Below are positions 2,301-40,420 of a stretch of 64,000 bases of DNA, piece after piece; the stretch's first letter is position 1; every line of letters begins with the position of its first letter. The notes below the pieces were generated by a model. It searched no databases, had not been told where the DNA came from, and saw only the letters and a program-made list of their open reading frames with translations. Where the stretch lies: assembly GCA_047967505.1 (NCBI GenBank), contig CM106538.1; one strand, given 5' to 3'. The DNA is from Dipteris shenzhenensis. Taxonomy: Eukaryota. The position numbers and the translations under genes were made by a program.

Positions 2301-5266
2301 GCATAATATCATAAAAAAATAGCCGCTGCTCGCACTTCATTTCCTGAAGTTCCCATAGTACATCTCGATCGATAGGTTGTTGGGTTTGATTTGTATGATT
2401 GGGTGGACGTTTTTCATTTTTTTGTAGTACTCCATGTCATTGGCAAGATCACATTTTTATGTGGATGCCCCTGGTCATTCATCGTTGGCGACTGTTAAGT
2501 AGCTACTATCGTTGCTTGTTGTCACTCCAAGGTATGTGGCATCCGTTTGAAAATGCGCCTGCAGTGAGTCAATGCTCTCTTTGTTTTCTGTGTACATGTC
2601 CTTCCAGGTTTGGGTTGTTTCGTTCAATGTGTGTTCGTTAGAGTGGAATGGTAGGTAGAGCAGGCATAGTTCCCTGTAGTGGTTTTCGGGGTCTTTTATT
2701 TTGTTGTAGTTATTGAAACGTATTATTATTTCTTTTCTTCTTTTTTTAGTAGATCCTTGTTTCATGTTATATGCGCTTGCTAATGTGGCACATGTAATTC
2801 GTGGTGCCTCTTTAAATACTTTGTTACAATGTCATCAAAGAAGATGTCAGTGCTGTCTGGATGAAGTAACTCTAGTTGTGCACATCTTTCAGTAGCAATG
2901 CCCTGTCAGTCGGTGCGTTTGTGTTTATGTATGTGAATTCTTCGGAAGTGCTTGTTAGAGGCAATGAAAGGCAAAGGTACACTGCTTGTTGGGCATTGCT
3001 GTGTTGAGTATTTAGTATTGCATTTCCCACCTTGCGTACATGCTCACTAGGTGTTGCATTGTCTTGAAAGCTTTGAACGATTGCATTCTTAACTGCATTG
3101 TTTGTCTCTTTGTCAACTTTGGTTATGTATGACATGCCATACGATGCTGCACCATGAGGGTTTAAAACAAATTGTATGTCAGTGTTAGCACCCCATAGTT
3201 TGCTCAGCACCGGGTTAAAATTGTTTGTATAAATGTCTTTTGGTTCTCTTTTCATGAATATTTTCAGTTGAGAGATGCTGCTTCGTAGCGCCGTTTCATA
3301 TACTTGATCAAGGATATTGATCTTGTCAAGGAAAGAATCGAAAGTGAGCGTGGTGGATGTTTTATCTTGTAGTGCTTCTTTAACTTTCACATATTTTTTT
3401 TTTGTATGTATTGTTAGTATCTTCATCAAGTAAGTGTCTCAAAATTTTCTGTATAGTGCATCGATGGCTTCGGGAACCCAAAGTAGCAATGGGAATGTTT
3501 TTTCTTGCATGTTTGTCTAGTTGTGTGTTTGTATATAATTGAGCATGGGTTCGAGTTGTGCACTATCAATAGCTATGTGTTTGTCAATAAACTGTTCTAT
3601 GGTTTTGTCGTCAGTGTTGTTACCGTTGGGTCCTTCATCTACCCAGAGCGGGCCGTGGTCGTGTTGGCTCCCTCTGTTTTGGAATTCTGTTACATAAAAT
3701 ACTGTTGTCTTGTCATAATAATGTTTTGAGGGCTCTGAATTTGTGGACATAATGTTGTGTCGTAGTCACGGGCTGCTTTGATCACATTTGGATGTTCTTG
3801 CCTGCTTGTTCAACATTCTCTTCATTCGCGTGTTTGTTTATTTCCTGCAAACATCGTACTAGTGGCTCCCACCATTTCTCAACAGTAGATAATGTGATGA
3901 AGAATGTAGGAGGGCCAAGTTGTCTAATCATGGCGAAGACGTTTTGCTTCAGCCACTGTTGTTTCTAATCGGCGGACGTTCTTAAACAAGTGAAGTCACA
4001 GAAGCCAATTTTTGATTGCAACAATTGCTTAATATTTGTATCTCGTACTATTGTTTTTGCCTCGATGCTTTGCCCTTGTTTTTGCCCTTTTCACATGCGG
4101 ACCCAAACAGATGATAGCACTTGCCTTACCACACCTTCATTGTTTTGAAGAACAAGTTTTCGATGGACCATGCAAATCTCCTGTCCTCATTTCGAAGTTC
4201 CCACTTCACTATGTCCTAGTAGCTTGTTCGACTTGGAATGCGGTATGTGTGAGCTTTGCCATAAAAAAGAGTTGAGAATGCAAGTTCTTCGTAGTACTCG
4301 TCCTAGAAAAGGCTAAGAGGATGAAATCCTGTTAAAGGGCCGATGGTTGTTGGATTGATCTCGAAATCAATAACTTGGTGGCTTGTGTAAATTCCATGCA
4401 CGAAAGTATCGGTTGCGACGTCAAGAGAAACGGTGCACTTGTCCCTGTCTACTGATGTTTGCTGCATTTCCTCTTCTTCGCATTGTAGTTGCTGGATGTG
4501 TTCGGCCCAAAGTTTGTTGATCTTAACATAGTTCTTAATGTAGAGGGGGGTTGCAAGCAATTCTTGAAGCACACATTGTTATAGTGGGGCATACTAGGCT
4601 GCTGATGTAGTTATGATTGTAATGTAGTCGACGCTTGATTGCTACTGTCACTGTAGCAGAGTCGTTTATTAAGCGCGGGAGAACTTGTTGTGCTCTATCA
4701 ACGTGCGAAACCATTTATTACGCTACCGTCGAGCCCGAGCTGACCTTCATATGTTAATTGCCTTAATTGCGCGAAAGGTATTCTTATTAAAAATCAGTCG
4801 CTCCTCGATTTTGTTCAGATTAGATGTGTGTTCTTGGGGGGTGGTCAGGGCATGTTTCTCTTTGAGAACCTAGGTTCTTTGCCTGAACGGATTTGGCTGT
4901 AGCACAAGGAGCATGTAAGCACTTTGTTTTCGGTTTCTTGCGCTACATCATTCAGTTCTTCATTTATAGATGTTGAGTTGATGCTTTCTTTTTTCAATTT
5001 CGATCTAAATGTCAAACATCCACACGTGAAGCAAGCAAACGCCGATGTGTCATCTATCTTTTCAAGGTATATCGTCTTTGATTTTCGCATTCCTCTTTTC
5101 CATTTCAAGGAGTTGGCCTTGGTGGGGTCTTGAGTAGATTTTTCTTTAACTAGGTCTCCGCCGATATGAATTCCCAATACTTCCTCGCCTTGCACCAAGC
5201 ATGCCGCCTCATAGGCAATATTAGAATGGTACGCCGTGTCTTTCAGCTTGTATATTTTGTTGCATG

Positions 5267-5609
5267 TGTTGAGATATGGTGCCATGAGCACATAGATTAA
5301 AGGGCTAAGGTATGGTATAGGAAATAATTAAAGTAGCCACCCTAGGATGTGGACTACAAGATGTGAAGATGTGGATTGAGGATATCCACAAGGAGAGATG
5401 TGGATGAGAGGATCACACAAGTGTTGACTATTCAAAGGGCACTCTCTTTATAAGAGGCCTATCATGTATTGTTGTGTACACACACACATTGGAATAGATT
5501 GAGTATTGCCTACCGCATGTCTCACATGGAATTTCTTCTATGGTTTGATCCCCCTTGATCTTTTGCTAATTCCATGTTGCACTAGGAGAGCACGATCCTC
5601 ACTTTCTCA
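5267..5609 (+). repeat. 5' LTR (family B)
   Basis: Direct repeat of 7581-7923, followed by the PBS. Confidence 0.95.
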
Positions 5610-7580
5610 TGGTATCAGAGCTTAGGTCTAGTCTCCTAGGCATGCCTTAGGAACTCATGTTTTCTTCTAGATTAGTTTTAGAGAGATAGTGGTTACCCTT
5701 GTTTAGATTTTTGGAAAAGTATGAGAGAATGTGAGTCGTTCTTGAACAATCTCTTGTTGAGTGTTGTGAGCTCTCCCTCCAAGGGAGATCCCCAAGGACT
5801 CTAAATCAGCTCTTCTACAAGCAGGCTTTCGAACCTTCAAGGCTCCACACCTCAACTACGGCTACTCTGTGATGACAACTACAGTGCCATAGCTCCTATG
5901 CTAGTCACCTCCCAACCGAGCTCACGATAGCACCTCCCAAGCGGTTGTTGGCGTGCTGCTGGTGTCGATGCAGTAGTCGTAGCTGCAACAGTGATAGTTC
6001 TTCTTCTTCTTATGTTGTCGTCACCGTCGTGACGGCCACCATGTCTGGAGGTAGAAGCAACAAAGAAAACAGCCATCACCTCGTTCAGCAAGCCAGCAGT
6101 AATTAGGCTCCATAGCCCATTCGATGAGCGCATCCATCAATGGAACCATCGGCTCCCTCATGAGCCCTTCTTCAACGAGAAGGTAGCGCAGCTGCCGCTG
6201 CCAACGAGCACAAGGGTAGAGCAATGCAAGGACCTCACGATCTTCATACAAGCTAAGAAGCTGTGACTGCCAGAGATGCACCAAAATGCAATCAGAAGCA
6301 CCACGCTCAGGAGCAAAAGATGGGCAAACACCCTCTTCATTCTCTGAGAACACCTATGACTAGTTGCTGCTCCAAACAGTGCTACTTCAAGCAACAAGAA
6401 GGCTCAAACACCTCTGAGCGGCTCCTACGGCTTCAACAAGACAGCTCTCAATGCCATGGCTCCAACCGTTGACGACGAGCCAGCCTCTTGATATGAACAG
6501 CTGCTTCACAGCAACTCTAGCTCTGCTATATTGCAGACGAACTCATCGACCTCATCCAAAGAGCGGTCTACAGCAGCTCTGCCTCCTTTAGCGACTCGAG
6601 CTCTTAGTTCTCCTGCACATTGGCTGCTAAGTCGAGGCAGAAGCAAAGGATTTGCAAGCTCCTTCCGTGGAGCTGTGCCTGCAACCGCATCAGCAACCTA
6701 AATGAGAGCTCTAAGCTCTCCTCTTGTATGCGCAGCCAGCCTAGAAGCTCCGTCGTCGTCGTCGCCATCACGGTCAACAGCAGCTCCGTCGTCGCCTCAA
6801 ATCTTTTCTTTCTCCAAGGTTCCCTTAGATTGACACGTGGCATATAATAACTAACCAGGGTTTCTTTAGTTAAATAGGTAACTATGGTTAGGGTAGGATT
6901 AGTTAAGTGCCACCCAAGCACAGTCTCTTTGTAAGCACAGTTTGAATGCAGCATGTGAATCCCTGTGCCACATCATCAAGGCCCCCTCGTCTTCACAAAA
7001 GCTTCAACAAAGTGTAACTTCCAATCCAGGAAGAATTTGAACACGCTCCAAAAAGGAAAAGTGATCATCTTTTCGAGCTCTACGCGTCTATCAAGTCAGA
7101 ATCATTGTATGCAATTAGACACTGCCAATATTGAAAAAAATCAATTGGTAAGACCTTTGCAACAAATGAAAAAGCAACGCATGAATGCAGAAAGCATGCC
7201 AAAAGCACAAGTGCATGAGATGACCATAGCAGGAAGCATGGCATCCACACACAAAGCATCAAGGCACATGGAAGAACAAAGCATCATGCAGGTAGCTACA
7301 CCAAACAAAGAAGCAAATGAGTCGTCATCAAGCCATGAGCCAAAAGGTGACATCAATGAAATGTATTGAGAAACAAATACCTTGCCAACCTTGCCTATAT
7401 TTTGTAAATCAAACCTGACCACCTGAGAGTAGCTATGAAAGCACCCAGGGGAGGTATTGACATGTAAAAGCCACACTTGACTACCTTAAGTAGCAATGCA
7501 TGCACTAAGGGGAGGTGATGGAATGTAACTCACATCTGACCACCTTGCAGTAGCCAAAGGATCATGGCACCAAGGGGAGG

Positions 7581-7923
7581 TGTTGAGATATGGTGCCATG
7601 AGCACATAGATTAAAGGGCTAAGGTATGGTATAGGAAATAATTAAAGTAGCCACCCTAGGATGTGGACTACAAGATGTGAAGATGTGGATTGAGGATATC
7701 CACAAGGAGAGATGTGGATGAGAGGATCACACAAGTGTTGACTATTCAAAGGGCACTCTCTTTATAAGAGGCCTATCATGTATTGTTGTGTACACACACA
7801 CATTGGAATAGATTGAGTATTGCCTACCGCATGTCTCACATGGAATTTCTTCTATGGTTTGATCCCCCTTGATCTTTTGCTAATTCCATGTTGCACTAGG
7901 AGAGCACGATCCTCACTTTCTCA
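7581..7923 (+). repeat. 3' LTR (family B)
   Basis: Direct repeat of 5267-5609, preceded by the PPT. Confidence 0.95.
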
Positions 7924-16029: not shown

Positions 16030-17000
16030 GTTTAATTAAGGGAGATGAAATGGAGGAAATAGGAGAGGAAAGGGACAAGGAAAGGGAGAAAAAGGGAGAG
16101 AGATAGAGGGGGGAATATGGATGCATGGGAGGGGCTTAATATGAAGAATGGGCTGAATTTATAAAGGGCATAGGAGAGGAAATGAGATGAGAGATAAGGA
16201 GAGAGGGGTTGAACTTATGAAGGGGATGGAGGGGGGATGGAGAGATGGAGAGGGGGATATAGAAACCTAAAAGCTATGAATGTTTTTGCAAATAGGTAAA
16301 TCCTCCAAAACATGATAGAAGGAGGGGAGAAAGGGGAAATAAAGAGGGGATAAAGGAGGACTGAAAGAAGGAGGGGAGAAAGTGGAGGGATATGGATGCA
16401 TGGATGCCTGGGAGGGGAAAGGGGAAATAAGGAGGGGATAAAGAAGGAGGACTGAAAGAGGGAGGGGAGAAAGAGGGGGTGGATGTGGAAGAGGGATATG
16501 GATGCATGGATGCATGGGAGGGGCTTAATATGAATGCTAGGGCCAGAGTTTATGAGGGGAATAGGACATGAATGGATAGGATGGATTCCTATAGGAGATG
16601 AATGATAGAATAGGGAGATAGGGGATGAATATGAAGGATGGGCTGAATTTATGAGGGGAATAGAAGATGAGATGGATGGAATGGATGCATGAGATTAGTT
16701 ATTATGAAAAATAAAAATGAGGTGAGTTTAGGATGAAGGATGGGTTGAATTCCTAAAGGGGAAGGATGTGGGGGGGGGGGGGGTAGAAAAATGGCTAAAA
16801 AGGGGAAGCAAAAGGAGAGAAAGAGGGAAAGGGGGATGAAGAGATGACTAAAAGGAAGAATAAAGGAGGGGAAATGGGGAGGGAAAGGAGAGTTGAATAT
16901 TGGGAAAAATTAGAGGGAGGGATGTATGGAAAAGGATAAAAACAAAAATACTAACAAAAAATTATGGAAATAAACTAAAAACTAATAAACAATAAACTAA
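16030..17000. repeat. Purine-rich low-complexity region with internal duplications
   Basis: GA/GGA-rich; repeated gatatggatgcatgg and gaggggcttaatatgaa units. Confidence 0.8.
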
Positions 17001-21259: not shown

Positions 21260-22759
21260 AGCTACCAAACTACCATTGATTCTGCTAGGTCTGCCTTCCA
21301 CGATTTCATCTCCCATACTCCATTTGTTGATAGAGAGGAGGAGTTATTTCCAGTCTTTGATAAGAGCATAGATGTCCTGGGTACCTACTTGGGAGCTCGA
21401 GATGATTTTGAAGACCTCATCAAGTACATGCAAGACCACATCGTGAGTTTTGCATATCAACTTGATGAGTCTACAAAGAGATGGGTCCCAATTGATTATT
21501 TGAAGTACTTGTTCAATCAAGAACCTAGGTTCGTGAAGCATTTAGACCACTTTTGAGCCCAGCTCACACCCCTAGGCTTTAGGGAGGTGGACACTGATGA
21601 CCTCCTAGCATGCGGAGTCATCAGAAACACAAAAAATAGGTTCCTATCCTGGGAAATGACCTTTATTTTCCTTCTCTAGGAGGGGCAAATGGAAGAGGAG
21701 TCCTCGACCTCAAGCCTTGCCTCTGCCCCTCCCTTTTCAATCCTCTTATTTCTATAGATGAGCCCAACATCTACAATGAACAGCCCATAAATGAAGAAGC
21801 TGAGGAGTGGGAAGCTACATTGGCCCTAGAAGTGCTCCAATGACCTCCTGAACCCCATTCTACTTCTCAAATTCCATCCACCTCAAGCAGCACCTCTGTT
21901 GACCTTGCAACAGTGATATGGTTTCTTGCTCCCCTTCTTGTTGATGGAGAATAATACCTCTTTCTCCATGACATCGAGGTTGTGTTTGGTCTCTGGGAGG
22001 ATGAAGCTCTTGGTGTCCAGTGTGGATACAAGGTGGACATGACTATGCAAGAACCTAGGTTTTTGGAAGAAGATGATTCAATAGAAGAGGTTCTTGCTTT
22101 AACACTGGCCAAAATCAAAGATGCAGAGACATCAATCTACTCTGACTTACTTGATGTTCTAGAATAAGCCTCCATATCTCACTTCGGACAGCGAGGCCTC
22201 TAGATCCATCCTCATTGACAAAGAGAAAGGGATTGAGCATGATGACTCCATAGTGGTAAGAAACTATGAGCTTTGAATTTCTTCTCTCTTGGTATAATTT
22301 TGCTTTAACGGAATTCTAATGTAATGTTGTGGACTGTTGCAGGAGGCATTTGAGGTTGACCTATTCTGATCTCAGCAACGCCTTGTTTGCAGTAGCTTCG
22401 GATAAGATCACTCATTGGCACATTACCTTGGCCAAGCAAAAGGGTGCTTTGTGGTTATCCACAAAAAGTTTTCTCCACATGGCACTGATGACCTCTTGAA
22501 GTGCAAGGCCTTGTCATGAGTGATTGGTCATGCTAACATCAATCACAATGCTGACAAGGTCATTTTGGTGAACCGCATGGCTACCCTCAATGCTTTTGGA
22601 ACCAATTTTCAAGGTATGGCATTGACGGTAGCAACCATGTCCTTGGCTAGCAACGACAATAGTGTTGACTCTCTATCGACTAGGTTTAGAGCCAGGAGTG
22701 TATTTGGGAATTCAAAGCCCGATGTTCTCAATGTTTTAGAGAAGAGAGAAAGGCTCTGA
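21260..22759 (+). pseudogene. Unknown accessory ORF, acidic, with a probable intron at ~22256-22343; convergent with the H3-like gene
   Basis: Protein-like frames ..SAFHDFISHTPFVDREEELFPVFDKSIDVLGTYLGARDDFEDLIKYMQDH.., ..LFLHDIEVVFGLWEDEAL.. and ..DKVILVNRMATLNAFGTNF..; donor gtaaga and acceptor ttgcag. Confidence 0.4.
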
Positions 22760-22999: not shown

Positions 23000-24102
23000 C
23001 TAGGGCCTAAGGGAGGGATCGGAGCGAATGCACTTGGTGAGTGCAAGGTCCTTGTCCATCATTGTTACTCTTTTGGCATGGATAGCACATAAGTTTGCAT
23101 CTTCAAAAAGACCTACTGTCATCTGCTCCATTGCCTCCTAAATTGCTCCCATAGTGCCTGAAGTGAAACACACATCATCCTTGTAATGCTGTGCTATCTC
23201 ACGTACAACACGCTGGAAGGGCGCACGGGGAATGAGATTGTCCACAGTGGTTTGGAACTTTCGGATCTCTTGAAGTGCCTTCATGCCTGTTTTTTTGCGC
23301 CTCTTAATCTTCGGGGGACCGTGCACTGGCCTCTAGACATGGCCCCATGGCCGCTTGTCTTCTTTGAACTTCTTTCGCCTCTCCTCCCTTGCAACCACCT
23401 CTTCAGACTCCTCTTCCTGAGTCTGGTGGGTCCTTCAAGGTGGCTTGTCACGCCTAGGGGTCTTCTTTGTCCTTGGTCTCTTTTCCTTTTAATGAGGCTA
23501 GGAGACAACAGGTTGAGGCTCTTGCTCAGCTTGTACTAGAGGCTCCTCATATGTGACAATCTCAAGGCACAGAGGCTTGATGGTGCTCTTCGGTGTGGTC
23601 TACTTGGTTGGAGGATTGGGGCCAAGGTTCATTACATCTACGAGCCTGCCAAATACTTCCTCTTGTTGTGGCCCCTTTAATCTCTCCATCTCCTCTCTTT
23701 GCCTTTCTTGCTCCCCTTGTTGGTCCAGATGCTCCGTGCTAGGACCCTACGGAGGAGGGAGGGGTAGTTGATCACGATGGATTGGACTATTTTGTCCCTA
23801 TTGGGAGACTTCTCTACTTCCACGGTTAGTTGTGTGGAAGGACTGAGAGGACCCCTGATCGTGCTTGGATCCTTCATCATGCTGGGATTCCTCATGGTGC
23901 TGAGATCCCTGGGATCCCCCATGAGAATTGAATGGTGGGGATTCTGTTGCTGGGACTCCTGGTGATGAGAACCGCCTTCAGATCCCTACTGATCATTGCC
24001 CTCTTGGCCACTGGGGCTTGCAGTTTATGGAGTTGTTAGGAGGAGAGCGAGTAGCATCTAAATGGTGTCCAATGGGCCTGTAGTTTGTTTAACTCGTGCC
24101 AT
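23000..24102 (-). pseudogene. Histone H3-like gene with a ~260-aa inserted disordered tail (~365 codons in total)
   Basis: Starts MARVKQTT (ATG at 24102). One frame runs from ~23923 to the stop at 23000-23002, broken only by TAG/TAA/TGA codons, and ends [85 protein letters not shown], a complete H3 histone fold. Confidence 0.9.
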
Positions 24103-24355: not shown

Positions 24356-26360
24356 TTATTCATCAAACATTTTACATTGGGGTTCTCTTAGGACCCAACG
24401 CCTCCCCTGTCTGACTTTACATTGCAACCAAAGCACAACCCCTTGGCTCCCTATTGAGGATTTCCAAGTAGCACATCTCCTTGTCTTCTTGACATGTTGA
24501 ACCACTTTTGCGAGACTTGAGACCTCTACCTTATCGCGCTTGAGAGTCCTGGCCTCTAGACATCTATAAAACCAGTCGAACATTTTGTGTAGTGCATTGC
24601 TTCGTGTGATACCACCCCCATGCCTTGTATTCTTGAAGTATGTTGCCTTTGCTCTATAGTGTGATTTCTCCATTCCTTGAGTATTCCAAATGGACAGAGG
24701 GCCCCATTGCTCCACAAACCATGGTGCATGTGCGTAAAGAATATGCTGTAAAGAAAAACATCGTATTAGAAACATAAACTGACTCAAGTTTAAGGCACAA
24801 AATTTCAACCTGAGGATTACCATGTAATGTGTAATATGTGACTCCCCCCATGCTTCTACCATCAATGATATGAATTATCCCAATGCTGTCTTGAATCTCT
24901 CATAATAAAGCTCATCTATTTGACCTTGTCTAAGCAACTTTGTAAATGCATCAAGCTTTGTCTACAATTTTGCTCTCAAAGTAGCAATTCATGGATGTGA
25001 AGCTTAATTTGTGGTGCACTCACACAAAGCTTTCTAGTACTTGCTTTGAGCCAATGCATGTTTTTCTTTATCAGCATTATGGTTGGATAAGAACCTCCTT
25101 GCCTTTCCTCCACCCATGGACACTTTAGCAAGAAGATTTTGTGTCTTTCCTGATTGTTTCTTGTCTTGCTTAAGCTTCACATTGCCTCCGTGAAGTCCCA
25201 TTAGTGAGAGTAGTTCTTCAGCTTTTGCAATGCATTGTGCAGATACTTGCTGTGGCCTCAAATTCCAAGCATAAACTAGATGGAGATAGAGTAACTTATC
25301 AAGTATATGCAGTTCAGCATGCAAAGTACACATGTGTACCCGCTCCAATCGAATTAGTAGAATGGGGTCCCACTTAGGATCCTTTTTGTGACGATCAAGG
25401 GCTACACTTTGGTTGCAAGAAAGGATGCCATTTTCCCATTGTAGGCTTCCCTTTTGCATCTTCTAAGAGTGGGTTCAATACAAGCATGTCCATTTTGCAT
25501 CTGCACCTATATCACAACCATACAAGCACTTGAGGGTCTTCAAATCACCAACTAGATGCCATTCAACTTGAAACGTTCCATGCGCATCCACTATTAACAT
25601 TTGCCTTGCCTCTTGTCTTCAAATAATCGACGGAATGCTGATTCTCTCCAAAACCCACTTCAATGTCTCGTGGCACTCCTTTGGGGTCTCAAAGGCTACA
25701 AGCCACCATATGTCCTTCTCAGATTGGATCGAGAAACCCTGCTCAACTTCCTCATCCCCTTGAGCAAAACGCAAGGGTCGTTCATAATACAAATGCTCAC
25801 CCTCTCTAGCTTGTGCTCTTTTACCAACTGAGCTTCGTCCATTTTTATAACAAATACTAGCTTGCCATCTATACAATGAAAGAGAAATATAGTAAGGATA
25901 TAGAAATGAGAAGAAATAAAGTTGAATGCAAAGAGGGAATTTCTCTTACCTTCTTCTCTCATCCCATAGAATTTGACCATGGCTCTCTGCAAATTCTCTA
26001 CATCCACACAAACATTATTGAAAGCATTCATCTCAAACGTTTGGATGCCAGATTTCTATTTCAAGTCATTGTGCCACTTACACAATCATATCCTCCAAAC
26101 TTTTCCCTAGCACATTGGTTTGTTTCTTGACATGCAAGCCTTATAGACCACGGTGTTGGCAATGGCATTGTAGATATATACTTTTCCTCCATAGTAGACT
26201 TGAAAATTTTAAAAACAGAGTTGTAAGATTTACGACTTACACCAGCAGCATCACAAGCTCTAAGCACCTCCTTTGCTTGCACGAGGCCCTTGAAGTCCTT
26301 CATTACCTCTCTAGCAACTTGTTCACTAAATCCAAAAGGTAATTCTCTTCAATAAAAATT
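24356..26360 (-). pseudogene. RAG1-core/Transib-like DDE transposase, spliced (introns 25869-25949 and 24746-24820)
   Basis: Ordered motifs VFVIKMDE, QSE, ECHETL, HLVVDLK..LYG..WTCLY*, TLHAEL, SMGGGKARRFL and ITHYM|HILYAHAPWFVEQWGPLSIWNTQGMEKSH. Removing both GT-AG introns restores the frame and motifs. Confidence 0.8.
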
Positions 26361-26469
26361 CACCACTTAATTGATTGGAGAGAAGAACACAATCACACCA
26401 CAAAAATGACAACAGACTCTGTACAATCTCCCCCCCTAGATGAGTGGCTCATGCTTCCTCATCTAGAGT

Positions 26470-27072
26470 ATTTATGATATTTCATAAAAGCACCAAGGAG
26501 CCAAAATTATCCCTCTCTTCCAAAATGAGGGATTTGCTTTACATAGCCATCTTAGGGCCCAAAAATGAATTATGTCCACTACAAAATATATATTGCTCAA
26601 ACTTGCAATAATAAAGCAAATACAAAATTGGCCCATGGCCATATATAATGCACTGTGCGACACCTCGATCAGTACCCTTGCACCAACTCCAATCCTTGCT
26701 ATGAGTTCCATCACTTGTACTCAAGCTGCCAATTACATTAGTTATTAACAATCGATTGAACGAATCATCGAATCAACAGATCCCAACATAACCCAACATA
26801 ACCACGCTCAAAGCACAATAATCAAGCACAAAACCAATAACACTAACATCATGCACTGTATGAAAAGGACTCTTTTGGGTGGCAAGGTCTAAAGGATACA
26901 AGTTTCCATCCACCCAAAGGTCAAGATGCTTCTTCCCTTGCAATCGAAGACTATGGAGCACACTTTGAGGAGTTCCACTATATCCCAAACGGCATGTGCT
27001 TGCATATTCTACCTCCAGTTGTAGGTTCACATGGTACTTGTTGGATATGTCCTCGAATGGTGCCATACTCAA
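26470..27072 (-). pseudogene. Unknown ORF upstream of the RAG1-like core; may be its N-terminal exons
   Basis: ORFs 26773-27072 and 26539-26751 on the same strand, possible donor gttagt at ~26847; follows a pyrimidine-rich leader on the - strand. Confidence 0.35.
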
Positions 27073-27099: not shown

Positions 27100-27556
27100 A
27101 TGTAGGGGAGAGCTAGCAAAGATGGAGCAGTGAGAGGGAGAGAGTAGCAAGGAAGAGGGAGGAGGAGAAGCAGATGAGGGCAAGAGGAAAAGGAGGAGGA
27201 GAGTAGGGGGACCAGTGTAGAAGGGAGGGAAGGAGCTACTGTAGAAGGAGGAGGAGGGGAGAGGTGCTACAGGAGGGAGGAGGAAGGGAGAGATTCTACA
27301 GGAGGGAGGAGCAGAGGAGAGGGAGCCTGGGTAGGTAGAGAAGGAGGGGAGAGGAAGGAGGGAGGAGGAGCTAGAAGGAGGAGGAGGAGGGGAGAGGGAG
27401 GAGGGAGGAGGAGGAGCGAGATGGAGGAGGGGAGAGGAGGAGGGAGGGGGAGGGAGGGAGAGGGAGAGGGAGGAGGAGGGAGGGAGCGAGGGAGGGAGGA
27501 GGGGGAGGGAGAGGGAGGGAGGGAGGGAGAGAGAGGGAGGGAGGGAGGGAGGGAGA
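27100..27556. repeat. GGA/GGGA low-complexity tract
   Basis: Almost pure purine on the + strand. Confidence 0.9.
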
Positions 27557-29449
27557 TTCAAAATTTAAAACTCAAATATCAAAAACTGGCCCACTCCCCT
27601 CATTGGTGGGGGGAGAGGTGGGCTCAAATGTGGGCTTAACCCATCTAGGTTGGGCCCTTGCATTAGCCCACTAAGCATTCCCTAATCCATTCCTTATGAG
27701 GCCCTTTTAAGACCCCAATTCTCCCTAATGCTACATGAATGTGATGACTCTGAACTGTGGGCATTTGAAAAGTGAGTGCAAATAAACAAATGCTAAGGTG
27801 TAAGTAGGCACAGCGAAAGACCACAAGCTAAGAGCTACCAAAAGTAAGACGGGGCTTTCAAGGATGTGTATGAGTAGCTTGATCCTTTATAATGTTGATG
27901 GTGTTGGAGCAGCAATGGAAACATGATGGAGACATGAGAATATGAAAGAAGCTTATTCATTCATGAGATACATGGCCAATATAAAGGCAAGAGATACAAT
28001 GTACCTATGAGCTCAAGAGAACATCTAGATTGATAAATTTCTCCATGAATCTCTCAATCACATACCACACTCCTAGATTCACTCAATCACACCTACTAAC
28101 TGACACATCATCAATCACACCTATCTCAGGCAATGTACCTACACACACAAACACACTTGTTCACACACTCACTCATGTGATCACACTCACAATCATAGAC
28201 CTTGGTATTAATCCATTACATCAATTTGTTCCAACATACCCCCCCACAAATCGATGACCTCAACCCTAGCAGTAGTCCATGGGAGACTTCATGGCTTGCA
28301 CACCTCTAGTGAAACCACTCATGATCCCAACCTGGCACTCACTCTAGTTGCATCAGTAGCAGTAGACTCATTTCGACATCCTCACCCCAACATGATCTCA
28401 CTATGAATTTGGTCTCTTGTTTTACAATTGGGAGACTAAACAATGACTATGAATGGGAAATTCCCATAGGTCTGACAAGGTAAACTCAGACATAAGACTA
28501 AAAATCATTTAAGGGGGACATCCCAAGGCAAAGAACCCTTATTGACCACACAAAAATTCTAATATTTTGGAGATGTTGGGAAGATTCCCCCCTTGATAGC
28601 AGTCCTTTTCCAGTCTCATTTCCATGCTATCATTGTGTCTGGTCCACAAATGTATAATTATATATTCAATAGGGTGCATATTTAAACCACCATGTTGATG
28701 TAGTTGAAAGAGTCCAAGTTGATGTCCTGCCAATGCTTTGGAGAGGCTCTGAATGTGTAACATCTATTTCAGGTACATAACATTGGTACCCATTTTAAGA
28801 TTCTCTCAAAAATTCATTAAAATTATAATTAAAAGAAAAAAGCTATATTTTGCGGTCAAAAACTAAAAACTTACAGAATTCATACATTTTTCAAACATCA
28901 TGCCTATTAAATAAAAAGGGCCTCCACTATATCGCAAAATATCTTTTGGTGATTTGCACAATCCTTAATGTGAGTAGTATTAAGGCTTGTGTAAACTATC
29001 ATACCCATCGGAGATATACACATATGCTAGAAGCACATTGATGCATATTTCTTAATAGTCATGCATAATTTGTGTTAAGAAATTAAGAAATATACATGAT
29101 CAACCATGCAAATAATATTCGATGGATATGATACTTTGTAGAAGCCTTAATGTGAGTAAGATTAAGGCCCATGAAAAGTATAAATTGTAAAACATTTTAT
29201 CGATGCTTTTATTGATGACAAATATGGCAAAAAATCTCCCTGATGGCATGAGCAATATGCTTTTTTCATGGCCTTTGGACCGTCCTTACCAACAGCAACT
29301 TCTACTCCCCATCTTCTTCTTTTTTTAGGCACAAAAACAAGTTTGTTAATATTATGATCATCATATAATTTATACACATAAGTTCTTCGCCCAGGATTTC
29401 TCCTTATCAAAGCAAAAAAACAAACAAAATTTGATGCTGTTGACCTAGT

Positions 29450-32135
29450 TGTTAGAATTATTAATATATTCTAGGTAGTGGCCAATGTAATGTAATAAGT
29501 GAGTTAGGGGCACTTTTCCCTTTTAGAGGTTTTTCCCCCTAACCATAGTCTAATATCTAACTAAGGTTAGTGATTAGATAGGGTTTTGTCACTTAGATAA
29601 AACCCTTATCTCTTTCCTTGTACTCACACTTCAGTCACTTCAGTTTAGCACACTTTGGGAGTGAACTACGTTCAGCTTACTCTCCATCTTCCTCACTCTT
29701 GCTCTCTTGCTTTATCTCACATTTGGTATCAGAGCACTTCCTTCCCGGACCTGCTCCCTGCTCCTAGATTCTTGTTTCTAGCTCCTGCATTTCAACTCCA
29801 TCGCCAAGCTCCAGCTCCCATTCATTCGTATAGCTCCATCGTGACCATACAGTTCGTATAGTCTATACAATTGTATGGATTTTGTACCATGCCTGCTTCC
29901 ATTCATACACCTGTGCATTTCATTTGTACAGCCCCGTACGATTGTATGGATTTTCGTACATGTGCGTTAGTTCATTTGTATAGATTTTCGTACAGTTCGT
30001 TCGCACAAATTTCTGTACATTTAGCCCATACAGATTTTTGTACTATCAGGACACTTTGTCCGTATAGATGTCCGTACTGCTCATGTAGTTCATTCGTACA
30101 AGGTTCCATACAATTCTATACTTGCAGATTTATGTAGGCTGAAGGTGTTCGATGTCCCCGTCATTTGTTGACAAGTGTCATTTGCAGGCTCAGTTGTGCA
30201 ATCAACCATTGTTTGGCTTAGTTTTTGGGAGCACATTTGAAATTGTAGCAGGCATTGTAGTAGATCTGCAAGTTTTGGAGATTTTTTGGGGCTTTTGCAA
30301 TTGCATTACAATCTGGCAGTGAAATTTGGGGCTTTTGTAGGCAGAGTGCAATTTGAGCAACGTTTGGGCTTTCAGATCATTTGCCCTCTTTTGTATGCAA
30401 TTTCTCGTAAGAAATTGGGGCTTTTCAATTTGGGTTGCAATTTTGCAGGTAAAAGAGCATTTTGGAAGTTTGCAAGTAGTTCTAGACTCAGTTCGAGTCA
30501 ATTTGTAGACTTTTGCCACTTTTTGTAGATTCTATTTGCATATTTTTAGGCATTCAATAGAGCAATGAGGTGCCTTTTGAGCCTTTGATAGGCTGTGATA
30601 GTATTTGTCACTGTGGGTAGATTTTCTTTGTAGATTTTACTTGTCCATTTGACATCCTAGAAAGGGAATTTACTTGGTCAGTTTGTTGTGTTTTTTGAGT
30701 TTATTTGGCAAAAATGGCTTAGAACAACCCCAATGAGGTGTTTAGAGTTCTCACACATGAGGATAAGTTGGATGGCACCAACTACTCCTTGTGGAGTTTC
30801 ATAGTTCACAATATCTTGGTTGGTAGACATCTTTGGGATTATGTCAATGGAGATGAAGCAAGACCAGATACAGTGGCTACACTTGTCACTCCTATAGTTG
30901 GAGGCAGGGGTAGGGGTGCAAATGCAGCATAAGTAGTTGGAGCAGTCGCTCTAGGAGCTCCCACAGTAGAGCAGAAAAGATGGGACTCTAGAGATGCACA
31001 AGCTCTTTCAATGATTTCTCTCTCTATCAAGAGGTTCATTATACCTCACATTCGATCATGCAAGACATGTATGGTAGCTTGGGAGATACTAGAGAGTATG
31101 TTTATAGTAAGAAATGACTCCAAAGTTTCCTTTCTAAAGTGAGAGCCTTCCCATATGCATATGGATGAGGGAGATTTCCATGAATTCTCACCTCACAAAG
31201 CTTCACGACTTGTGGGAGCAGTTGTTGAATATTGATGGTCCCATTCCGGATTCAAAGATGATCACCACCACTCTGAATTCTCTTCTTGAGTCCTATCTTG
31301 GTTTCCACACCTCGCTGAATTTATCATTGAGGGGGGGCAACAATCCTCTCTTTTCATGAGTTGGTAGGACTTCTATTACAGGAGGAGCAGACTCGCAGAA
31401 ATATGGCATCCCAGGCTGGCAAGCATGCCATGCTTTCCAAGTTCAAGCCCAAGGGTAAAGGGCAGCAAAAGCCACATGCCAATTAGCCCACACATCAGCA
31501 TAAAGCTAATTCAAGACATCCCTCTTATAAGGCAAAGGCTGATGTAGATAAGCAAAAAAAGAAGGGCATTTGTCATTATTGCAAGAAGCCAGATAAAAGA
31601 AAAGGGATTCAGGTATGGCTATGTTAGATGCATCAGCTCCTCATTCTCATGATGGGGGAGATGTTGTAGCCAACTTTGTGGAAGAGCACTATGCCTTTCA
31701 ATCTTGCACTTCAGATTTTTCAGTGGGTAGTTCAGATGCTACAACCACTAATGATGATGACCCTTATGCTTTTTTGACTTGCAGCTATGATCCTTTAAAG
31801 GATGCATGCTCTCTCAGTGTCAATGAGACACTCAATACTTGTATTTTGATAGTAGTGCTTCAAAGCACATTACTTCCAAGAAGGGTCTTTTTGCATCTCT
31901 ACACCCACCACCTACCAAAAAGAAGGTGACTTGTGAAAATAATTCTTCTTATTCAGTGTATGGAGTGGGAGACATTATTCTCACATCGACTGATGGCACA
32001 TATTTCAGAATTTCAGATGTTCTCTATGTGCCAGGCATAAAGAAGAATTTGCTTTCAATGTCCTCACTCAATAGAGGAGGATTTCAGGTTGTTTTTGATG
32101 ATGATAAGTGTGCAGTTAGAGACAAAGAGAATTAC
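29450..32135 (+). mobile_element. Ty1/copia element (family A): 5' LTR, PBS, degraded gag and protease; 3'-truncated
   Basis: LTR ~29450-29721; PBS TGGTATCAGAGC 29724-29735; gag DKLDGTNYSLWSF..LWDYVNG; protease YFDSSASKHIT..DVLYVPGIKKNLLS. Confidence 0.85.
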
Positions 32136-33111
32136 TATGCTTCCATGGCACAATTTGTCAACAAAATCAAAAGCATTATGTCCCAACTAGAGGGCATAAA
32201 TGCAAAAGTAGGGGAGAAAGATGCACTTGCAATATCCTTAAAGCATGCCTACAGAGTATAGTGCATTGACAACCACTTTGAAGAATTTGCCAGATCCAAA
32301 GTTTGAAGAATGTGTATCCTCTCTTCTCAAAAAAGAAAGAGAGTTGAAAGCATCGACATCAACATCAACACGTAACGGCTATAATGAAGAACAAGCACTA
32401 TTCAGTAAAACATCAATGAAGTGCTACCATTGCAAAAGGATGGGTCACTATCAAAGTGACTGCAGATTGAAGAACAAACCAAAGTGTCACTATTGCAAGA
32501 AGCTGGGACACAAGGAAGAAGATTGCAGATTGAAGAACCAACAGGTCAACTACATGGAATTGTCATCAAGCCATGAGCCAAAAGGTAACATCAATGGAAT
32601 GTATTGAGAAACGAAAACCCTTGCCAACCTTGCCTATTTGTTTGTAATCAAACCTGACCACCTGAGAGTAGCTATGAAAGCACCCAGGGGAGGTATTGAC
32701 ATGTAAACCACACTTGACCACCTTAAGTAGCAATGCATGCACTAAGGGGAGGTGATGGAATGTAACTCTCATTTGACCACCTTGCAGTAGCCAAAGGATC
32801 ATGGCACCAAGGGGAGGTGTTGAGATATGGTGCCATGAGCACATAGATTAAAGGACTAAGGTATGGTATAAGAAAGAATTAAAGTAGCCACCCTAGGATG
32901 TGGACTACAAGATGTGGAGATGTGGATTGAGGATATCCACAAGGAGAGATGTGGATGAGAGGATCCCACATGGTTTGACTATTCTAAAGGTTTTCTCTAT
33001 ATAAGAAGCCTATCATGTATTGTTGAGAACACACATTGTAATAGATTGAGTGTTTGCTACCCTATGTCTCTCTTGTGGTGCTTTGATCCTCCTTGATCCC
33101 TCACTTTGTCA
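32136..33111 (+). mobile_element. 3' half of a gag-only (TR-GAG-like) family B element with its 3' LTR
   Basis: Copia-type gag C-terminus with two CCHC knuckles (CYHCKRMGHYQSDC, CHYCKKLGHKEEDC); 32563-32817 matches 7323-7580; LTR 32818-33111 is homologous to 5267-5609. Confidence 0.85.
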
Positions 33112-36100
33112 GTCGCAATTTTGGATTGTCAGTCTATCAGTTCCCAAGTCATGGAGGACTGGGAGACCCCATTCTTCATAGAGCTCCTTTGATAGGATAT
33201 TTACACTTGCTCCACCATCCACTATGGCTTGGACTTCATTATATGCCTTGTGAATCAAAGGCACACTAATGTTGCATGTGTCACCTCTCACCCATCTGCA
33301 TAGGGATATCTTCAATGTCATTCATAGGTGGAGGGGGATTTGCGAGTTCAATCCATCCTTTGAAACTCTCCCAGAGATTGGGACAATTCCGTAGGAGGAT
33401 TCCGATGGGAATTGACAGAGGGCAACTCAGGATGCTAGAGAGTGTGGCTCCTTCAAGTTGACATGGTGGTACATTATGTTGTGGAGTTTGTTGTTGGAAC
33501 AGAGGCTCGAGTACAATATCAATACTATGTGGGGCCAAGTCATGGATTGGGTCTTGAGCTTGTTTCTTAGCCTCAAATTGAGCTTGTTTCTCAGTCTCAA
33601 ATTGAGTACCCATTGTTGAAGTGCCTGAAAGCGAGCCTTCTCCACCTTTGCACTTGGGCCTGGAGCTTCCTTTATTTGAGGCTCAAGAGTTGATGTGGAT
33701 GAGCTCGACTACTCATTGCTTGGTGGAGGTGGAGGTACTTGTGCTTTCTTTTTAAGAAGTCACTTTTGTTGGATTGGAATGTTAGGGTCCTTCTCGGGTG
33801 CTTGGTGGCCTGTTTTTGTTGGCATGTAATTACATTTACAAGTTGTGATATTACACTTGTCGGACCTAGACTTTGATGATCCACCCCAATGATGCCGATT
33901 GGGACATCAAGCTTAACCTCTGTTTGTTGTGGGACTTTATTTTTCATGGGAAAATCCATACAGGCATGTCCTATGCCACAATCTCTGCAGAGTGGTTAGA
34001 ATGTAGCGGGGCTACCACGATGAGGGCACTCTACGATCCAGTGATTTTCTCCACAATCGTAGCACTTAATTGGTGCTTGATATGTGTTGGGATGTACTCA
34101 ATTTGCATAAACTAGTATTAGACCCTCTGCACCTTTAACATCCAAGATAGGTAGAAGGAGAGGGTGGGGAGAATTCAATACTTGACCCAAACGTTCAGCA
34201 CCAAATAAACTTGCAATCCTTTGTTGATAGTTTATCTTTAGACCAAAAAGAATTACAACTAGAAGCTTGAAATGAGGCACAAAAGGTTGATTAGGTACAA
34301 ATGGATTCCTTGGTTGAAACATTGCCAACCATAGCCGAGGCCTAGAAACCTTTGTAGTGAGATTGAGAATAAACCATTCAAGACGAGCTTATCCATAGGA
34401 ATTAATAGGCAGATCTCCCCCCAAGCTTGGGAGCATCCCACCCTTTGAAGAAGGACACCCTTTTAATTATCTCTGAAGCAACAAGTAGCTCGATCATCGT
34501 ACAATGAGTAGAATTGAAATCAAAGTCCTCCCATCGTATCACTAGTTCTTTACCATGAATCATCCATGGTGCATCATCCCACCCATCATCTCCTTGAACA
34601 ATGCACCAGACAATGAGCCGTTGAAGGTCTACATGAAGATCAAGAAAGAGATCTCGCCCATTGGTAGCCATAAGGCTCGGAGGACTAGGCACCAAATCCT
34701 TAAACTTGTCGAGAAGTGACATAAATATCCACCCTCCTCATGTGGCATGCGTCCATGAAGTGAACTTGGAAAAGTTTTGAATTAGTGATCTAGTAGGAGA
34801 TGTGAATAGAGCACATGAAATGAAATACTTTTGCTTTTTATAGCAAGAGTAAACTCCCCACGGTTAGAGAGTTACAGTTCCCGAGATTTCAATATATAAG
34901 CAAAAATCATTACATCACTTCCTACTTGTTGGCCCAATGATAAGTCTCCCTTTTGTGAAGGGGGAGGTCTTGGGTTCAAATCCCACTCTTTAATAAAAAG
35001 AGAGGAGAGGAGAGGAGAAGGAGAAGGGAAAGAGAAGGAGAAGGACAAGGAGAGGAATAGGAAGAGGAAGAGGAAGAGGAGAGAGAGGGGGGGCACAGGA
35101 TCTGTTACAATTTTGCAAAAACCCAAAAAAGCTATTCGTGACCAGAAGATGCAAGAGCCTAGAAAACCGCCGCGATCTATCCGCGATGCACGCCGGTGTA
35201 CACATGGATGCACGAATGCACATGCAAGAGCTCAGAGGGAGCACCGATGTTGCAGTTCTACAGGTGCGACCGATACGAGCAGAAGATTCGCCAGCCAGAA
35301 TACACATAGGAACCGCAAGCAGAAAGTAGGCCGACTGGAAGCGCAAAAGCAGGGAGGTTTTCAAGCTGTAGAGACAGGGAAGGCACGCAGTTTAGAGGCA
35401 CAAAAGTAGAGAACTGCACACAGAAGAGGCCGCAGAGCCGCACCCTGTCGTAGGAGTAACAGATTTTACACCACTAGCTGTGGAGATTTTGATCCCAGTA
35501 GCCACACCATTTCTGTTACCTAAAAAAGAAATCAGGACAAGAGGCTAGACACTAAGCATGGCGACGCTCAAGGGCCATAGAGGAAAGGAGAACGTGAGGG
35601 CGAAACATTATCATGGGAGGGGAAAAGGGATTAGAAGGGGAGGGAATGAAGAGGGAGACTATGGCACTAGGGGAAAGGGAGAGGGGGAAGAGAAGCATGT
35701 ACATGATGGGAGGAGGATTGTAAAGATGGAGACATCAAGGGAAGAGGACCATGCTTTATTTGAAAGGAAGGAAAGGGGAAAATCAAAGTACTAGCTAGGT
35801 GGCTTTACAAGAATGAGCGTGTCCCATCAAGGAATAGCCGCCTCCTTTTATAGCCAAGAGAGGGGGTCTCTCCCAATAAATGCATCCTCCCACATGCAAG
35901 GTGTGTGTGGAAGAGTCTCCCATGTGGGCTAGGTGGCTACGCACTCTCAATTGTGTGCGATAATGCTTGGCCACATTTTTCCACATATATCAACTCCGAT
36001 ATCCCAAGTCTATGATACTCCCTTGGTCTCTTCCCAATTTTATAATACGTTCAAACATCTAGGAGGACAAATGGAGGGCTGGCACAAGGAATCTTGCCAC

Positions 36101-38229: not shown

Positions 38230-40420
38230 TCCAAACATAAAATGGGAATGTTCCATAGGGGCAAGAACTCTGCACAAAATTTTCCAAGACTTGTCGATGT
38301 TCACCGCCCTTCAAGTCTCTGCTCAATAAGTTTTTACAAGTCTTCTTGGATGACTTGTGTATCCATTCAGACAAGAAAGACCAATTACAATGCCTTGAGG
38401 TAGTTCTCATCAACAAATGCAGGGAGTATGGCATCTCCCTAAATTAGACAAAATGCCAGTTCATGGTCACCCACGGAATTGTTTTGGAACACATAGTCTC
38501 TCAATATGGAATTGCAACCGACATGGAAAAATCAAAATCATTATGGAATTACCACCTCCGCATAATTTGAAAGGAGTGCAGGTCTTTATGGGAGATGCCG
38601 GCTACTATAGAAGATTCATCTTGTGGTATGCCATGATAGCCCGCCCTATATACAAATTGTTGGTGGAATTATTTTGTACAAAGAAGTGTGACAAAGCCTT
38701 TGAGCTTCTAAAATGGTGCCTCATCACAGCACAATTCCTCATAGCTCCCAATCAAGAAATTGATTCTCATGTTCACAATGATGGCTCTAAGTATGCAATT
38801 GGGAGCGTACTATGACAACTTGGGGATCATAAGAAGGATTACTGAATTTACATTGCCAATCATCAACTCAATGATGCAGAAATCAACTACACAACCACCG
38901 AAACAAAAGCACTGGCAATGGTTTATAATGTCAAGAAATTTTGACACTATTTATTGGAAAATGATTTTGTATTCTACACCAACCATCAAGCATTGTTATA
39001 TCATGTGAATCATCTGTGTATGACAGGAAGGGTAACCAAGTGGCAAGAATTTGATTTCAAAATAGTGGTCTAAAAACATGCTCAAGACTACATTGATGAT
39101 CACTTGTCTCGCGTCAATTTTGTAGAAGAACCCACTCGAGTCAAAGATGACTTTTCAGATGCCACATTATTCCAAATCAAGGCTGTCCCGAAATGGTGTA
39201 CTGACATCATTGGATATATAATGATGGGAAAATCCCCACTAGATTTATGACGAACGGAAGCCCGCAAACTCATATAATCAAAGGTGCACCATATCAACTC
39301 ATAGCAGCCAATTATACAAAATAGGTAAAGATTAGATCCTGCATAGATGCATCATGCCAAATGAAATCCCACTTGTCATTTGCAAAGTGCATGAAGGCAT
39401 TGCAGGAAAATGCTTTGTTGGAGAAGCCACAGCTCAAAAAGGTCTTTTAGCTGGCTATTGGTGGCCCACAATATGGAATGATGCCTATGTGTTTGTGAAA
39501 AAATGTGATGTATGCCAACGAACTACCAAAACTCAACACAAAGACTTTAATCCCCGAACTACAGTCATGGCACAACACCCCTTTGAAAAATGGGGAATTG
39601 ACTTTCTAGGACCATACATCCTGCCGCTAAAGGAACACAAGCTTAGTACATCATTGTGGCAACATGTTATTTCATTAAATGGACTGAGGCATCAATATGC
39701 AAAGTAAATGCCAGAAGTACTTCCAAGTTCCTTTATGAAAATGTGATTGACACATGTTATGGTTGCCCATTGGAAATAGTCTCTGGACAAGGAACCCAAT
39801 TTGTCAAGTAATCCAAGAACTTCTCTCAGGACTCATGGTTATACACAAAAAGATAACTCCCTACTGTCCCCATGGGAATGGGCAAGAAGAATCTACCAAT
39901 AAAACCCTCTACATTATTGTCACAAAGGTAGTGGAACCCAAACGCTCTGACTGCTCGAAAAATCTTAGCTTTGCCTTATGGGCCTACAGAACCACTTTTA
40001 AGTCACCACAAGTTTTACACATTGAAAGTAGTATATGGTTTGAAGGCAGTATTCCCATTAGAATTCATTATCCCTAGTCTATGAGTGGTAGTACAATAGC
40101 TCCTCGGTGATAAAGAATACTTGGAAGCACGACTATTACACCTTGAGAAGCATACTGAAACAAGGTTAAGAGCCTACCATGCAATGACAATAGAAAAAAG
40201 ATGAAGGCATGTTTCGATAGAAATCTCAAATAAGGAGATTAATGAAGCTAACCTGGATTTTCTCTACAATGCCAAAGTCCACAAGGGCAAGTTAAACTGT
40301 CACCATATAAAGTTAAAACGATCAATCCCATTGGCACTGTGCTCCTCGAAACTTTGGATGGAGTGCAATTCAAATCAATGATCAATGGCAGTAGACTCGA
40401 GCGCTACTATGTCAACCTGC
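38230..40420 (+). mobile_element. Ty3/gypsy pol remnant (RT, RNase H, integrase)
   Basis: FMGDAGYYRRFI; HNDGSKYAIGSVL; NYTTTE..ALAMV; GYWWPTIWND..CDVCQR; PFEKWGIDFLGP; ALWAYRTTFK; INGSRLERYY. Confidence 0.92.

Follow-up and report, generated by a model that had tools for sequence, protein, structure and literature searches.

The DDE and C2/H2 motifs of cut-and-paste transposases are common to the whole CACTA-Mirage-Chapaev-Transib (CMCT) clade, which comprises EnSpm/CACTA, Mirage, Chapaev and Transib together with Plavaka, ESTA and Lanisha, and whose elements mostly have 5'-CA..TG-3' termini and target duplications of 2-5 bp (Kojima 2025). Lanisha was proposed as a cut-and-paste superfamily from the moss Ceratodon purpureus (PMC8245031). 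It was reported by Maumus, McDaniel and Carey (Repbase Reports 2020; GenBank MT647524), was later included in the CMCT clade (Kojima 2025) and is summarized as a plant lineage distinct from EnSpm whose motifs are DDE, C(2)C and H(3-4)H (PMC12730594). Furthermore, Tao et al. list 39 plant "potential Transib-like proteins" (PMC9435367). Here, a decayed transposase gene (open reading frame 1, ORF1) and a histone H3-like gene (ORF2) on the minus strand of a 64,000-nucleotide stretch of Dipteris shenzhenensis DNA (GCA_047967505.1, contig CM106538.1; hereafter the window) were analyzed. The locus is most likely a decayed autonomous cut-and-paste DNA transposon of the CMCT clade which encoded a RAG1-core-like DDE transposase and an H3-like protein, a reading to which we assign a probability of roughly 0.8.

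The transposase pseudogene of the window

ORF1 was delimited by tblastn with P0002, a relative of 706 aa, which gave identities of 44% over 345 aa, 42% over 86 aa, 31% over 84 aa and 42% over 97 aa. A preceding sequence-only reading had placed a RAG1-like transposase at 24356..26360; the core motifs do lie inside this span, but the gene extends to at least 27039, where an N-terminal domain is encoded. The features, all on the minus strand, are listed in the direction of transcription after the full extent.

24356..27039, minus strand: transposase pseudogene (ORF1), whole recognizable extent, four collinear tblastn segments with P0002
26758..27039, minus strand: conserved N-terminal domain with the motif HLDLWVDG at 26905-26928; many family fragments match P0002 here
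26067..26318, minus strand: helical region, equal to P0002 residues 225-307; in intact relatives its counterpart superposes on the nonamer-binding and dimerization/DNA-binding (NBD/DDBD) region of RAG1
25869..25949, minus strand: intron 1, 81 nt, GT...AG; the junction restores EE joined to DGKLVFVIKMDE, as in P0004
25834..25851, minus strand: VIKMDE, putative first catalytic Asp in strand beta-1, from motif, conservation and predicted topology
25712-25729, minus strand: IQSEKD, from motif position
25661-25681, minus strand: KECHETL, from motif position
25529..25552, minus strand: VGDLKTLK, putative second catalytic Asp just after strand beta-4, from motif, conservation and predicted topology
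25475..25492, minus strand: WTCLY followed by a stop, what is left of the CxxC zinc motif, with the stop in place of the second Cys codon
25310..25330, minus strand: CTLHAEL, the HxCTLH motif of the family, from family conservation
25088-25120, minus strand: SMGGGKARRFL, from motif position
24821-24835, minus strand: ITHYM, from motif position
24746..24820, minus strand: intron 2, 75 nt, GT...AG, interrupting the HxxxxH motif
24356..24745, minus strand: last exon with HILYAH at 24728-24745, the putative catalytic Glu in GMEKSH at 24659-24676 (from the conservation of M-E-x-S-H), RHGGG and the stop codon

Every motif that the sequence-only reading had aligned in order with RAG1 could be located on the minus strand, in stop-to-stop frames between 24356 and 26348. 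The two GT-AG introns proposed there were confirmed as well, since their removal gives REE joined to DGKLVFVIKMDE and ITHYM joined to HILYAH, and the identical reading was found in the intron-less relatives P0004, P0072 and P0215. The motif series had been called the full RAG1 core series; the motifs are present, but the second Cys of CxxC has become a stop and the copy is not intact.

In comparison with P0002, ORF1 contains nine in-frame stops (eight in 25780-24779 and one in 27039-26758) and two frame changes (from -3 to -2 to -1). It is the only ORF1 copy in the window and is a dead, inactive pseudogene. The relative P0177 is 71% identical to it over 329 aa.

Purine-rich low-complexity tracts of the GGA/GGGA type were found at approximately 27100-27560 and at 16040-16780, one of which adjoins the 5' side of the transposase.

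Structural similarity to the RAG1 core

A comparison with the structures of the PDB, proposed in the sequence-only reading, was carried out on AlphaFold models of intact relatives. RAG1 is the enzyme by which antibody genes are cut. Model 1 was built from P0107 (32-sequence alignment; pLDDT 68.8, pTM 0.63) and model 2 from P0248 (44-sequence alignment; pLDDT 81.8, pTM 0.79). For both, the top Foldseek matches were RAG1, BbRAGL and HzTransib by a wide margin. Model 1 had 49 matches at E<=1e-3 with a best value of 3.8e-9, and all those listed were one of these three proteins; Hermes followed at rank 50 (8.5e-3). Likewise, model 2 had 49 matches at E<=1e-3, all those listed again being RAG1, BbRAGL or HzTransib (best 1.8e-11), and the P element transposase was found at rank 50 (0.035).

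A second, independent comparison was made with the all-against-all structure aligner VIA-align and resulted in the following scores (rmsd, root-mean-square deviation).

Model 1 against RAG1: Z 17.1, 368 residues aligned, rmsd 4.1
Model 1 against BbRAGL: Z 16.0
Model 1 against HzTransib: Z 13.3
Model 1 against the P element transposase: Z 12.1
Model 1 against ISCth4: Z 7.1
Model 1 against Hermes: Z 6.5
Model 2 against 4wwx_E (RAG1): Z 19.8, 501 of 598 residues aligned, rmsd 7.5
Model 2 against 6dbi_C: Z 19.3, 471 residues aligned, rmsd 4.8
Model 2 against 6cij_A: Z 19.2, 463 residues aligned, rmsd 4.6
Model 2 against BbRAGL: Z 18.8
Model 2 against HzTransib: Z 13.8
Model 2 against the P element transposase: Z 11.1
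Model 2 against Hermes: Z 8.1

In the alignment with 4wwx_E, residues 1-655 of model 2 were placed onto chain residues 418-1008, with residues 1-100 inside the span that is aligned to RAG1 from 418 onward (the NBD/DDBD region). The RAG1-core fold, consisting of the pre-RNase H region, the RNase H fold and the ZnC2 and ZnH2 insertion, was recognized in both models, whose sequence identity to the RAG1 and Transib structures is 10-15%. The predicted structures are the decisive evidence and support structural homology of the family to the RAG1/RAGL/Transib core. Since no CMCT transposases other than RAG1/RAGL and Transib came up in the structure matches, any member of the clade may match RAG1 first; the best match to RAG1 hence indicates membership in the clade and not in Transib.

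Conserved residues and sequence similarity to RAG1

In model 2, strand beta-1 contains D207, D304 immediately follows beta-4, and the helix 579-594 has E581 at its start. The conservation of these and further positions was determined in the family (P0248 numbering).

D207: 90% of 21 sequences
D304: 97% of 31 sequences
C324 and C327: 91% of 33 sequences
H382: 97% of 38 sequences
H387: 100% of 38 sequences
M-E-x-S-H: invariant in 27 sequences

The complete CMCT motif set was found in P0248 (D207, D304, C324/C327, H557/H562 and E581). Thus, conservation of the D, D, E, CxxC and HxxxxH residues is supported, and their predicted positions are those required by the RNase H topology. For the DDE triad and zinc site, which the sequence-only reading had suggested checking in a model, it is the D/D/E part that could be fitted to the predicted RNase H secondary structure.

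At the level of sequence, the similarity of the family to RAG1 is marginal. A phmmer search of the PDB sequences with P0072 yielded 15 matches, all of them RAG1, with E values from 0.0024 to 0.014 and approximately 20 bits. In the ungapped alignment, the H-x4-H and E of the family fall on H937, H942 and E962 of RAG1, and identical residues were found at T933, Y935, H937, H942, P944, G951, S952, G954, W956, G960 and E962 (numbering taken from the 1040-residue chain 9jpu_A). The sequence-only reading had aligned these three RAG1 residues with the window copy itself; HMMER places them for P0072, but the window pieces did not match RAG1. The likeness to RAG1 hence rests on the relatives and not on the window copy, because three of three window pieces found no RAG1 in the PDB.

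The Pfam family RAG1 (PF12940) was the sole listed match of P0072 (15.8 bits, E 0.0038) and one of two listed matches of P0215 (12.2 bits), both below the cut-off of 25. With RAG1 found by one of seven single queries (best E 0.0024) and Pfam scores below the cut-off, significant sequence similarity to the RAG1/Transib core was not obtained. Among the named clusters of the ESM Atlas, RAG1 was nearest (0.94-0.95, 182-195 shared features), followed by clusters partly carrying DUF1280 (0.94-0.95) and by Tnp2 clusters (0.87); such language-model neighbour scores serve as leads only.

The histone H3-like second gene

Approximately 1 kb downstream of the transposase stop codon, a second gene was found on the same strand.

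23000..23332, minus strand: histone H3-like gene (ORF2), decayed, with one in-frame stop between its halves; Pfam Histone PF00125

The two halves match PF00125 with E values of 5.4e-12 and 2.9e-11 (46.5 and 44.1 bits, cut-off 26.4). In the Ceratopteris gene models P0238 and P0241, the last transposase exon is joined to an H3 fold, and P0238 scores 111 bits against PF00125. An intact frame of 184 codons with its own Met was identified in the metagenome locus L002 (1675-2229), where it starts 89 nt after the transposase stop. It begins with MGRVKQCAKR, which we take to resemble the H3 tail. The corresponding frame of the metagenome locus L007 (2129-2707) is 57% identical to that of L002, and the window ORF2 is 38% identical to the latter over 115 aa. 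The transposases of the relative loci with ORF2 are only about 36% identical to the window transposase; therefore, the linkage to H3 spans distant branches.

ORF2 is similar to canonical histone H3 in its Pfam Histone domain, which is above the threshold, and in its H3-type C-terminus. It differs from canonical H3 in its location in or beside a transposon, in a long insert, basic and rich in proline, that precedes the fold, and in its strong divergence. The literature searched contained no account of a histone gene in this kind of transposon, a point on which the supplementary details of Lanisha may bear.

A third open frame was observed 3' of the H3-like gene in L002 (2587-2856, MVRVKKTP...) and L007 (3059-3238, MVRRKITP...). 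The two frames have similar starts and are cut by the contig ends.

Distribution of the family

A HMMER scan of 1.84 billion representative sequences with P0002 resulted in 541 matches at E<=1e-3, 248 at <=1e-10 and 37 at <=1e-30. The members found are mostly short fragments, many of which terminate by read-through into intron 2. The 90%-identity cluster of P0001, a protein 76% identical to the window copy, has 77 members. Named hosts are Ceratopteris richardii (two proteins) and Adiantum nelumboides (three proteins), all annotated as "hypothetical protein". The cluster of P0024 (two of its 14 members read) contains two transcriptome fragments from EukProt with the labels Prorocentrum and Pyramimonas, which are also called "hypothetical protein". 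No Pfam family was found above its cut-off for the window pieces and relatives.

In metagenome contigs, 27 family loci were detected, with long open frames of 843, 845, 802, 787 and 699 codons. L007, which encodes P0248, is intron-less and has all motifs. Intact members of the family thus exist elsewhere, and the window holds one of its many decayed copies. No relatives were confirmed in viral contigs (0 of 6 pattern matches) or in prokaryote genomes (0 of 26 pattern matches). The family is widespread, unnamed, multi-copy and decaying.

The metagenome proteins P0107, P0154 and P0155 form a divergent branch that has kept D, D and E; CxxC and HxxxxH are both absent. Possibly the zinc site is dispensable; alternatively, the branch could be inactive. 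The joint loss of both motifs in the P0107 cluster was considered as a sign of joint function and was discounted, since P0049, P0022 and P0113 lose the Cys side only or are truncated. A 105-sequence alignment of the family (A1, 1523 columns) was dropped because it was too fragmentary and its C-terminal pieces were misaligned; it was replaced by sets of 32, 11, 44, 27 and 7 sequences.

Comparison with known systems

The core of the family superposes on that of RAG1 and of BbRAGL, the RAG1-like transposase of ProtoRAG (PDB 4WWX, 6DBI, 6CIJ, 6B40), over 460-500 residues (Z 18.8-19.8). Common to both are the DDE residues on an RNase H fold and a CxxC approximately 20 residues past the second D; with RAG1, the family also shares the H-x4-H 19-20 residues ahead of E and the P, GS.G.W and G.E residues, which are identical to RAG1 944-962. 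In contrast, the family shares only 12-15% identity with RAG1 and BbRAGL and has an H3-like second gene; a RAG2-like partner gene was not seen. Instead of a RING or N-terminal zinc-finger region, the family has its own conserved N-terminal domain and a coiled coil. Unlike RAG1, it is multi-copy and decaying, and is therefore not a host recombinase.

HzTransib (PDB 6PQN, 6PQR, 6PQX) has the same fold (Z 13.3-13.8; Foldseek 1.6e-6 to 2e-4) and is, like the family, a single-ORF-type DDE transposase of a cut-and-paste element. It scores below RAG1 and RAGL, and the family is larger. Transib elements were reportedly defined by Kapitonov and Jurka in 2005 by terminal repeats that resemble recombination signal sequences (RSS) and by 5-bp duplications; neither was found for the family in the window and in six metagenome loci.

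Lanisha resembles the family as a non-CACTA lineage of a plant host with DDE, C(2)C and H(3-4)H motifs (PMC12730594). It differs in being said to resemble EnSpm, whereas the family has no Pfam Tnp2 signal. CACTA/EnSpm Tnp2 (PF02992) shares the clade-level motif set and the host kingdom with the family; it is distinguished by the lack of detectable sequence similarity and by its Transpos_assoc, DUF4216 and DUF4218 domains, which are missing from the family.

Transib reading, Lanisha and other explanations

The sequence-only reading took the motif series as that of RAG1. Specificity of the series for RAG1/Transib is not supported, since the motifs are clade-wide in CMCT (Kojima 2025). Its statement that the transposase does not resemble the CACTA Tnp2 of the window was borne out: Transposase_21 (PF02992) was found in none of 45 sequences (6 window pieces and 39 relatives) at E<=10 (E<=1 in one scan). 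An hhalign comparison of the family profile with the window Tnp2 fragment gave a probability of 0.3%, which is a weak test with a single fragment of 124 aa. The family belongs to the CMCT clade and is nearer to RAG1/Transib than to CACTA Tnp2 by every measure available here. The proposed extension of the lineage into plants stands in so far as the family is plant-borne, but is partly in print already with Lanisha (PMC8245031) and the 39 plant proteins (PMC9435367). Neither the assignment to Transib proper nor novelty for plants is established.

Within the clade, it is quite possible, although the odds are somewhat against it, that the family is a member or a fern branch of Lanisha and hence already described. 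The accounts of Lanisha (PMC12730594, PMC8245031), in which it is set apart from EnSpm and has a plant host and the motifs DDE, C(2)C and H(3-4)H, agree with a plant-borne family that is not Pfam Tnp2 and has the same motif set. However, Lanisha is also described as 'showing similarity to EnSpm' (PMC12730594), which does not fit the 45 sequences devoid of Transposase_21, and no named moss protein was present among the family clusters looked up, with Lanisha compared by description only. A position in the Transib superfamily proper, as sister or relative of RAG1L and maybe among the 39 'Transib-like' proteins of plants (PMC9435367), appears doubtful. It would account for RAG1 and BbRAGL as the best structural matches (Z 19-20 over 460-500 residues, N-terminal helices included), for a spacing from H-x4-H to E in P0072 that equals that of RAG1, and for RAG1 clusters as nearest named language-model neighbours. 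On the other hand, identity to RAG1/Transib is only 10-15% and Pfam RAG1 is below its cut-off, the window and six loci yielded no RSS-like CACxxTG termini or 5-bp duplications, a Chapa or RING domain is lacking, the N-terminus has no Pfam match or Cys-rich stretch (read in P0247), and the motifs in common are clade-wide.

A very divergent Tnp2-type transposase of CACTA/EnSpm is improbable. Clade and host kingdom are the same, a Tnp2 fragment is present in the window at 54724-55095 and Tnp2 clusters are language-model neighbours, albeit weaker ones (0.87); against this stand the absence of PF02992 from every Pfam scan of the family and the hhalign result with its single short fragment. Least credible by far is a resemblance to RAG1 by chance or by convergence on a generic DDE fold. 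The failure of the family profiles to find any RAG1 sequence would fit such an origin, but two independent models place RAG1, RAGL and Transib well above other DDE transposases such as Hermes and ISCth4 (Z 17-20 compared to 6.5-8.1), with a smaller margin over the P element transposase (Z 11.1-12.1), and all 15 sequence matches of P0072 are RAG1.

Several observations weigh against the preferred reading of a decayed CMCT transposon with a RAG1-core-like transposase and an H3-like gene. RAG1 structures were part of the training of AlphaFold, and the placement of the active-site residues was derived from secondary structure alone. Six of seven single-sequence searches of the PDB (P0002, P0107, P0248 and three window pieces) did not return RAG1, none of the three family profiles (A2, A3, A6) found it at E<=10, and the sub-threshold Pfam signal of RAG1 occurs in only two of 27 C-terminal members. 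The greater proximity to RAG1 than to CACTA relies on Pfam and language-model scores, because the structure libraries returned no CACTA-type transposase. The H3-like gene was detected in two of the 27 metagenome loci (two of ten, counted from coordinates, among those whose sequence goes on for 700 nt or more downstream of the transposase). Finally, the window and the six loci yielded neither terminal inverted repeats nor target-site duplications, so that the status as a transposon is based on copy number and decay.

Element ends and proposed mechanism

In the six metagenome loci, which may lack their ends, only low-complexity or local repeat pairs were detected. In the window, a candidate pair of ends at 21541-21572 and 27608-27639 (32 nt, 81%) was rejected, as it was not significant by blastn. 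Over 2365 nt, the loci L009 and L010 agree at 99.7% identity; the point at which they part (L009 3076, L010 2363) was rejected as an element end because it follows a polypyrimidine-TAG site similar to a splice acceptor. Instead of two insertions, the loci could represent assembled transcripts or alternative joins.

As a DDE transposase, ORF1 would have a RAG1-type insertion domain in addition to N-terminal helices at the NBD/DDBD position, a pre-RNase H region and an RNase H fold bearing D (beta-1), D (after beta-4) and E (helix start). If they work like RAG1 and HzTransib, intact relatives may act as dimers that nick at each element end, release the element via a hairpin on the flanking DNA and integrate it with a short staggered cut. 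As a guess, the product of ORF2 could mark or open the chromatin at donor or target sites.

Surroundings in the window

The window consists of plant-like, repeat-rich DNA. For the Pfam scan, 50 of the 62 frames of at least 110 aa were used; four frames of the ORF1 locus, six of low complexity and two opposite the pentatricopeptide-repeat (PPR) gene were left out. The following features were identified.

1633-2172, minus strand: PIF1-like helicase fragment (4.2e-14), possibly a Helitron remnant
5266-5565 and 7580-7879: direct repeats of 300 nt, 100% identical, 2314 nt apart
32817-33116: third copy of the 300-nt repeat, 77% identical, 25 kb away
7319-7468 and 32557-32707: stretches beside the 300-nt repeats, 90-93% alike
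31827-32604 and 38399-39704, plus strand: gag/pol retroelement pieces with Pol_BBD, zf-CCHC, RT_RNaseH_2 and Integrase_H2C2 (copia and gypsy are both among the window repeats)
48007-48352 and 53060-53406: direct repeats, 94-96% identical, 5053 nt apart
49301-51306, minus strand: copia-type RVT_2, rve and gag-pre-integrase frames between these direct repeats
54724-55095, minus strand: CACTA Tnp2 fragment (Transposase_21, 4.2e-36), the sole Tnp2 among the scanned frames
58472-60985, minus strand: intact PPR protein of 838 aa with an E motif
59093-60444: PPR repeats visible as a 303-nt periodicity

The region 48007-53406 is probably one retrotransposon with both long terminal repeats. PPR proteins with an E motif are of the land-plant type.

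Implications for RAG1-type transposases in plants

The recognition of a plant-borne family with the complete RAG1-core architecture, which has no Pfam model and is annotated as "hypothetical protein" in ferns, would widen the sampling for the inference of ancestral enzymes. The novelty is tempered by Lanisha and the 39 Transib-like proteins of plants, which may already cover the family. What was not found in print, in the literature searched, is the recurrent association with a histone H3-like gene.

Because RAG2 reads the H3 tail, a transposase of RAG1 fold that comes with an H3 of its own merits testing. We tentatively suggest, as a possibility with the balance against it, a deep RAG1-type transposon lineage of plants and protists whose structure is nearer to that of RAG1/RAGL than insect Transib's is, and which ancestrally carried an H3 variant as its second gene. 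If so, it would be the first case in which a transposase of RAG1 fold has a partner chromatin protein that is not RAG2, and the H3 variant would choose or prepare the chromatin for excision or insertion. In addition, recognition of the family would improve the repeat annotation of the very large genomes of ferns.

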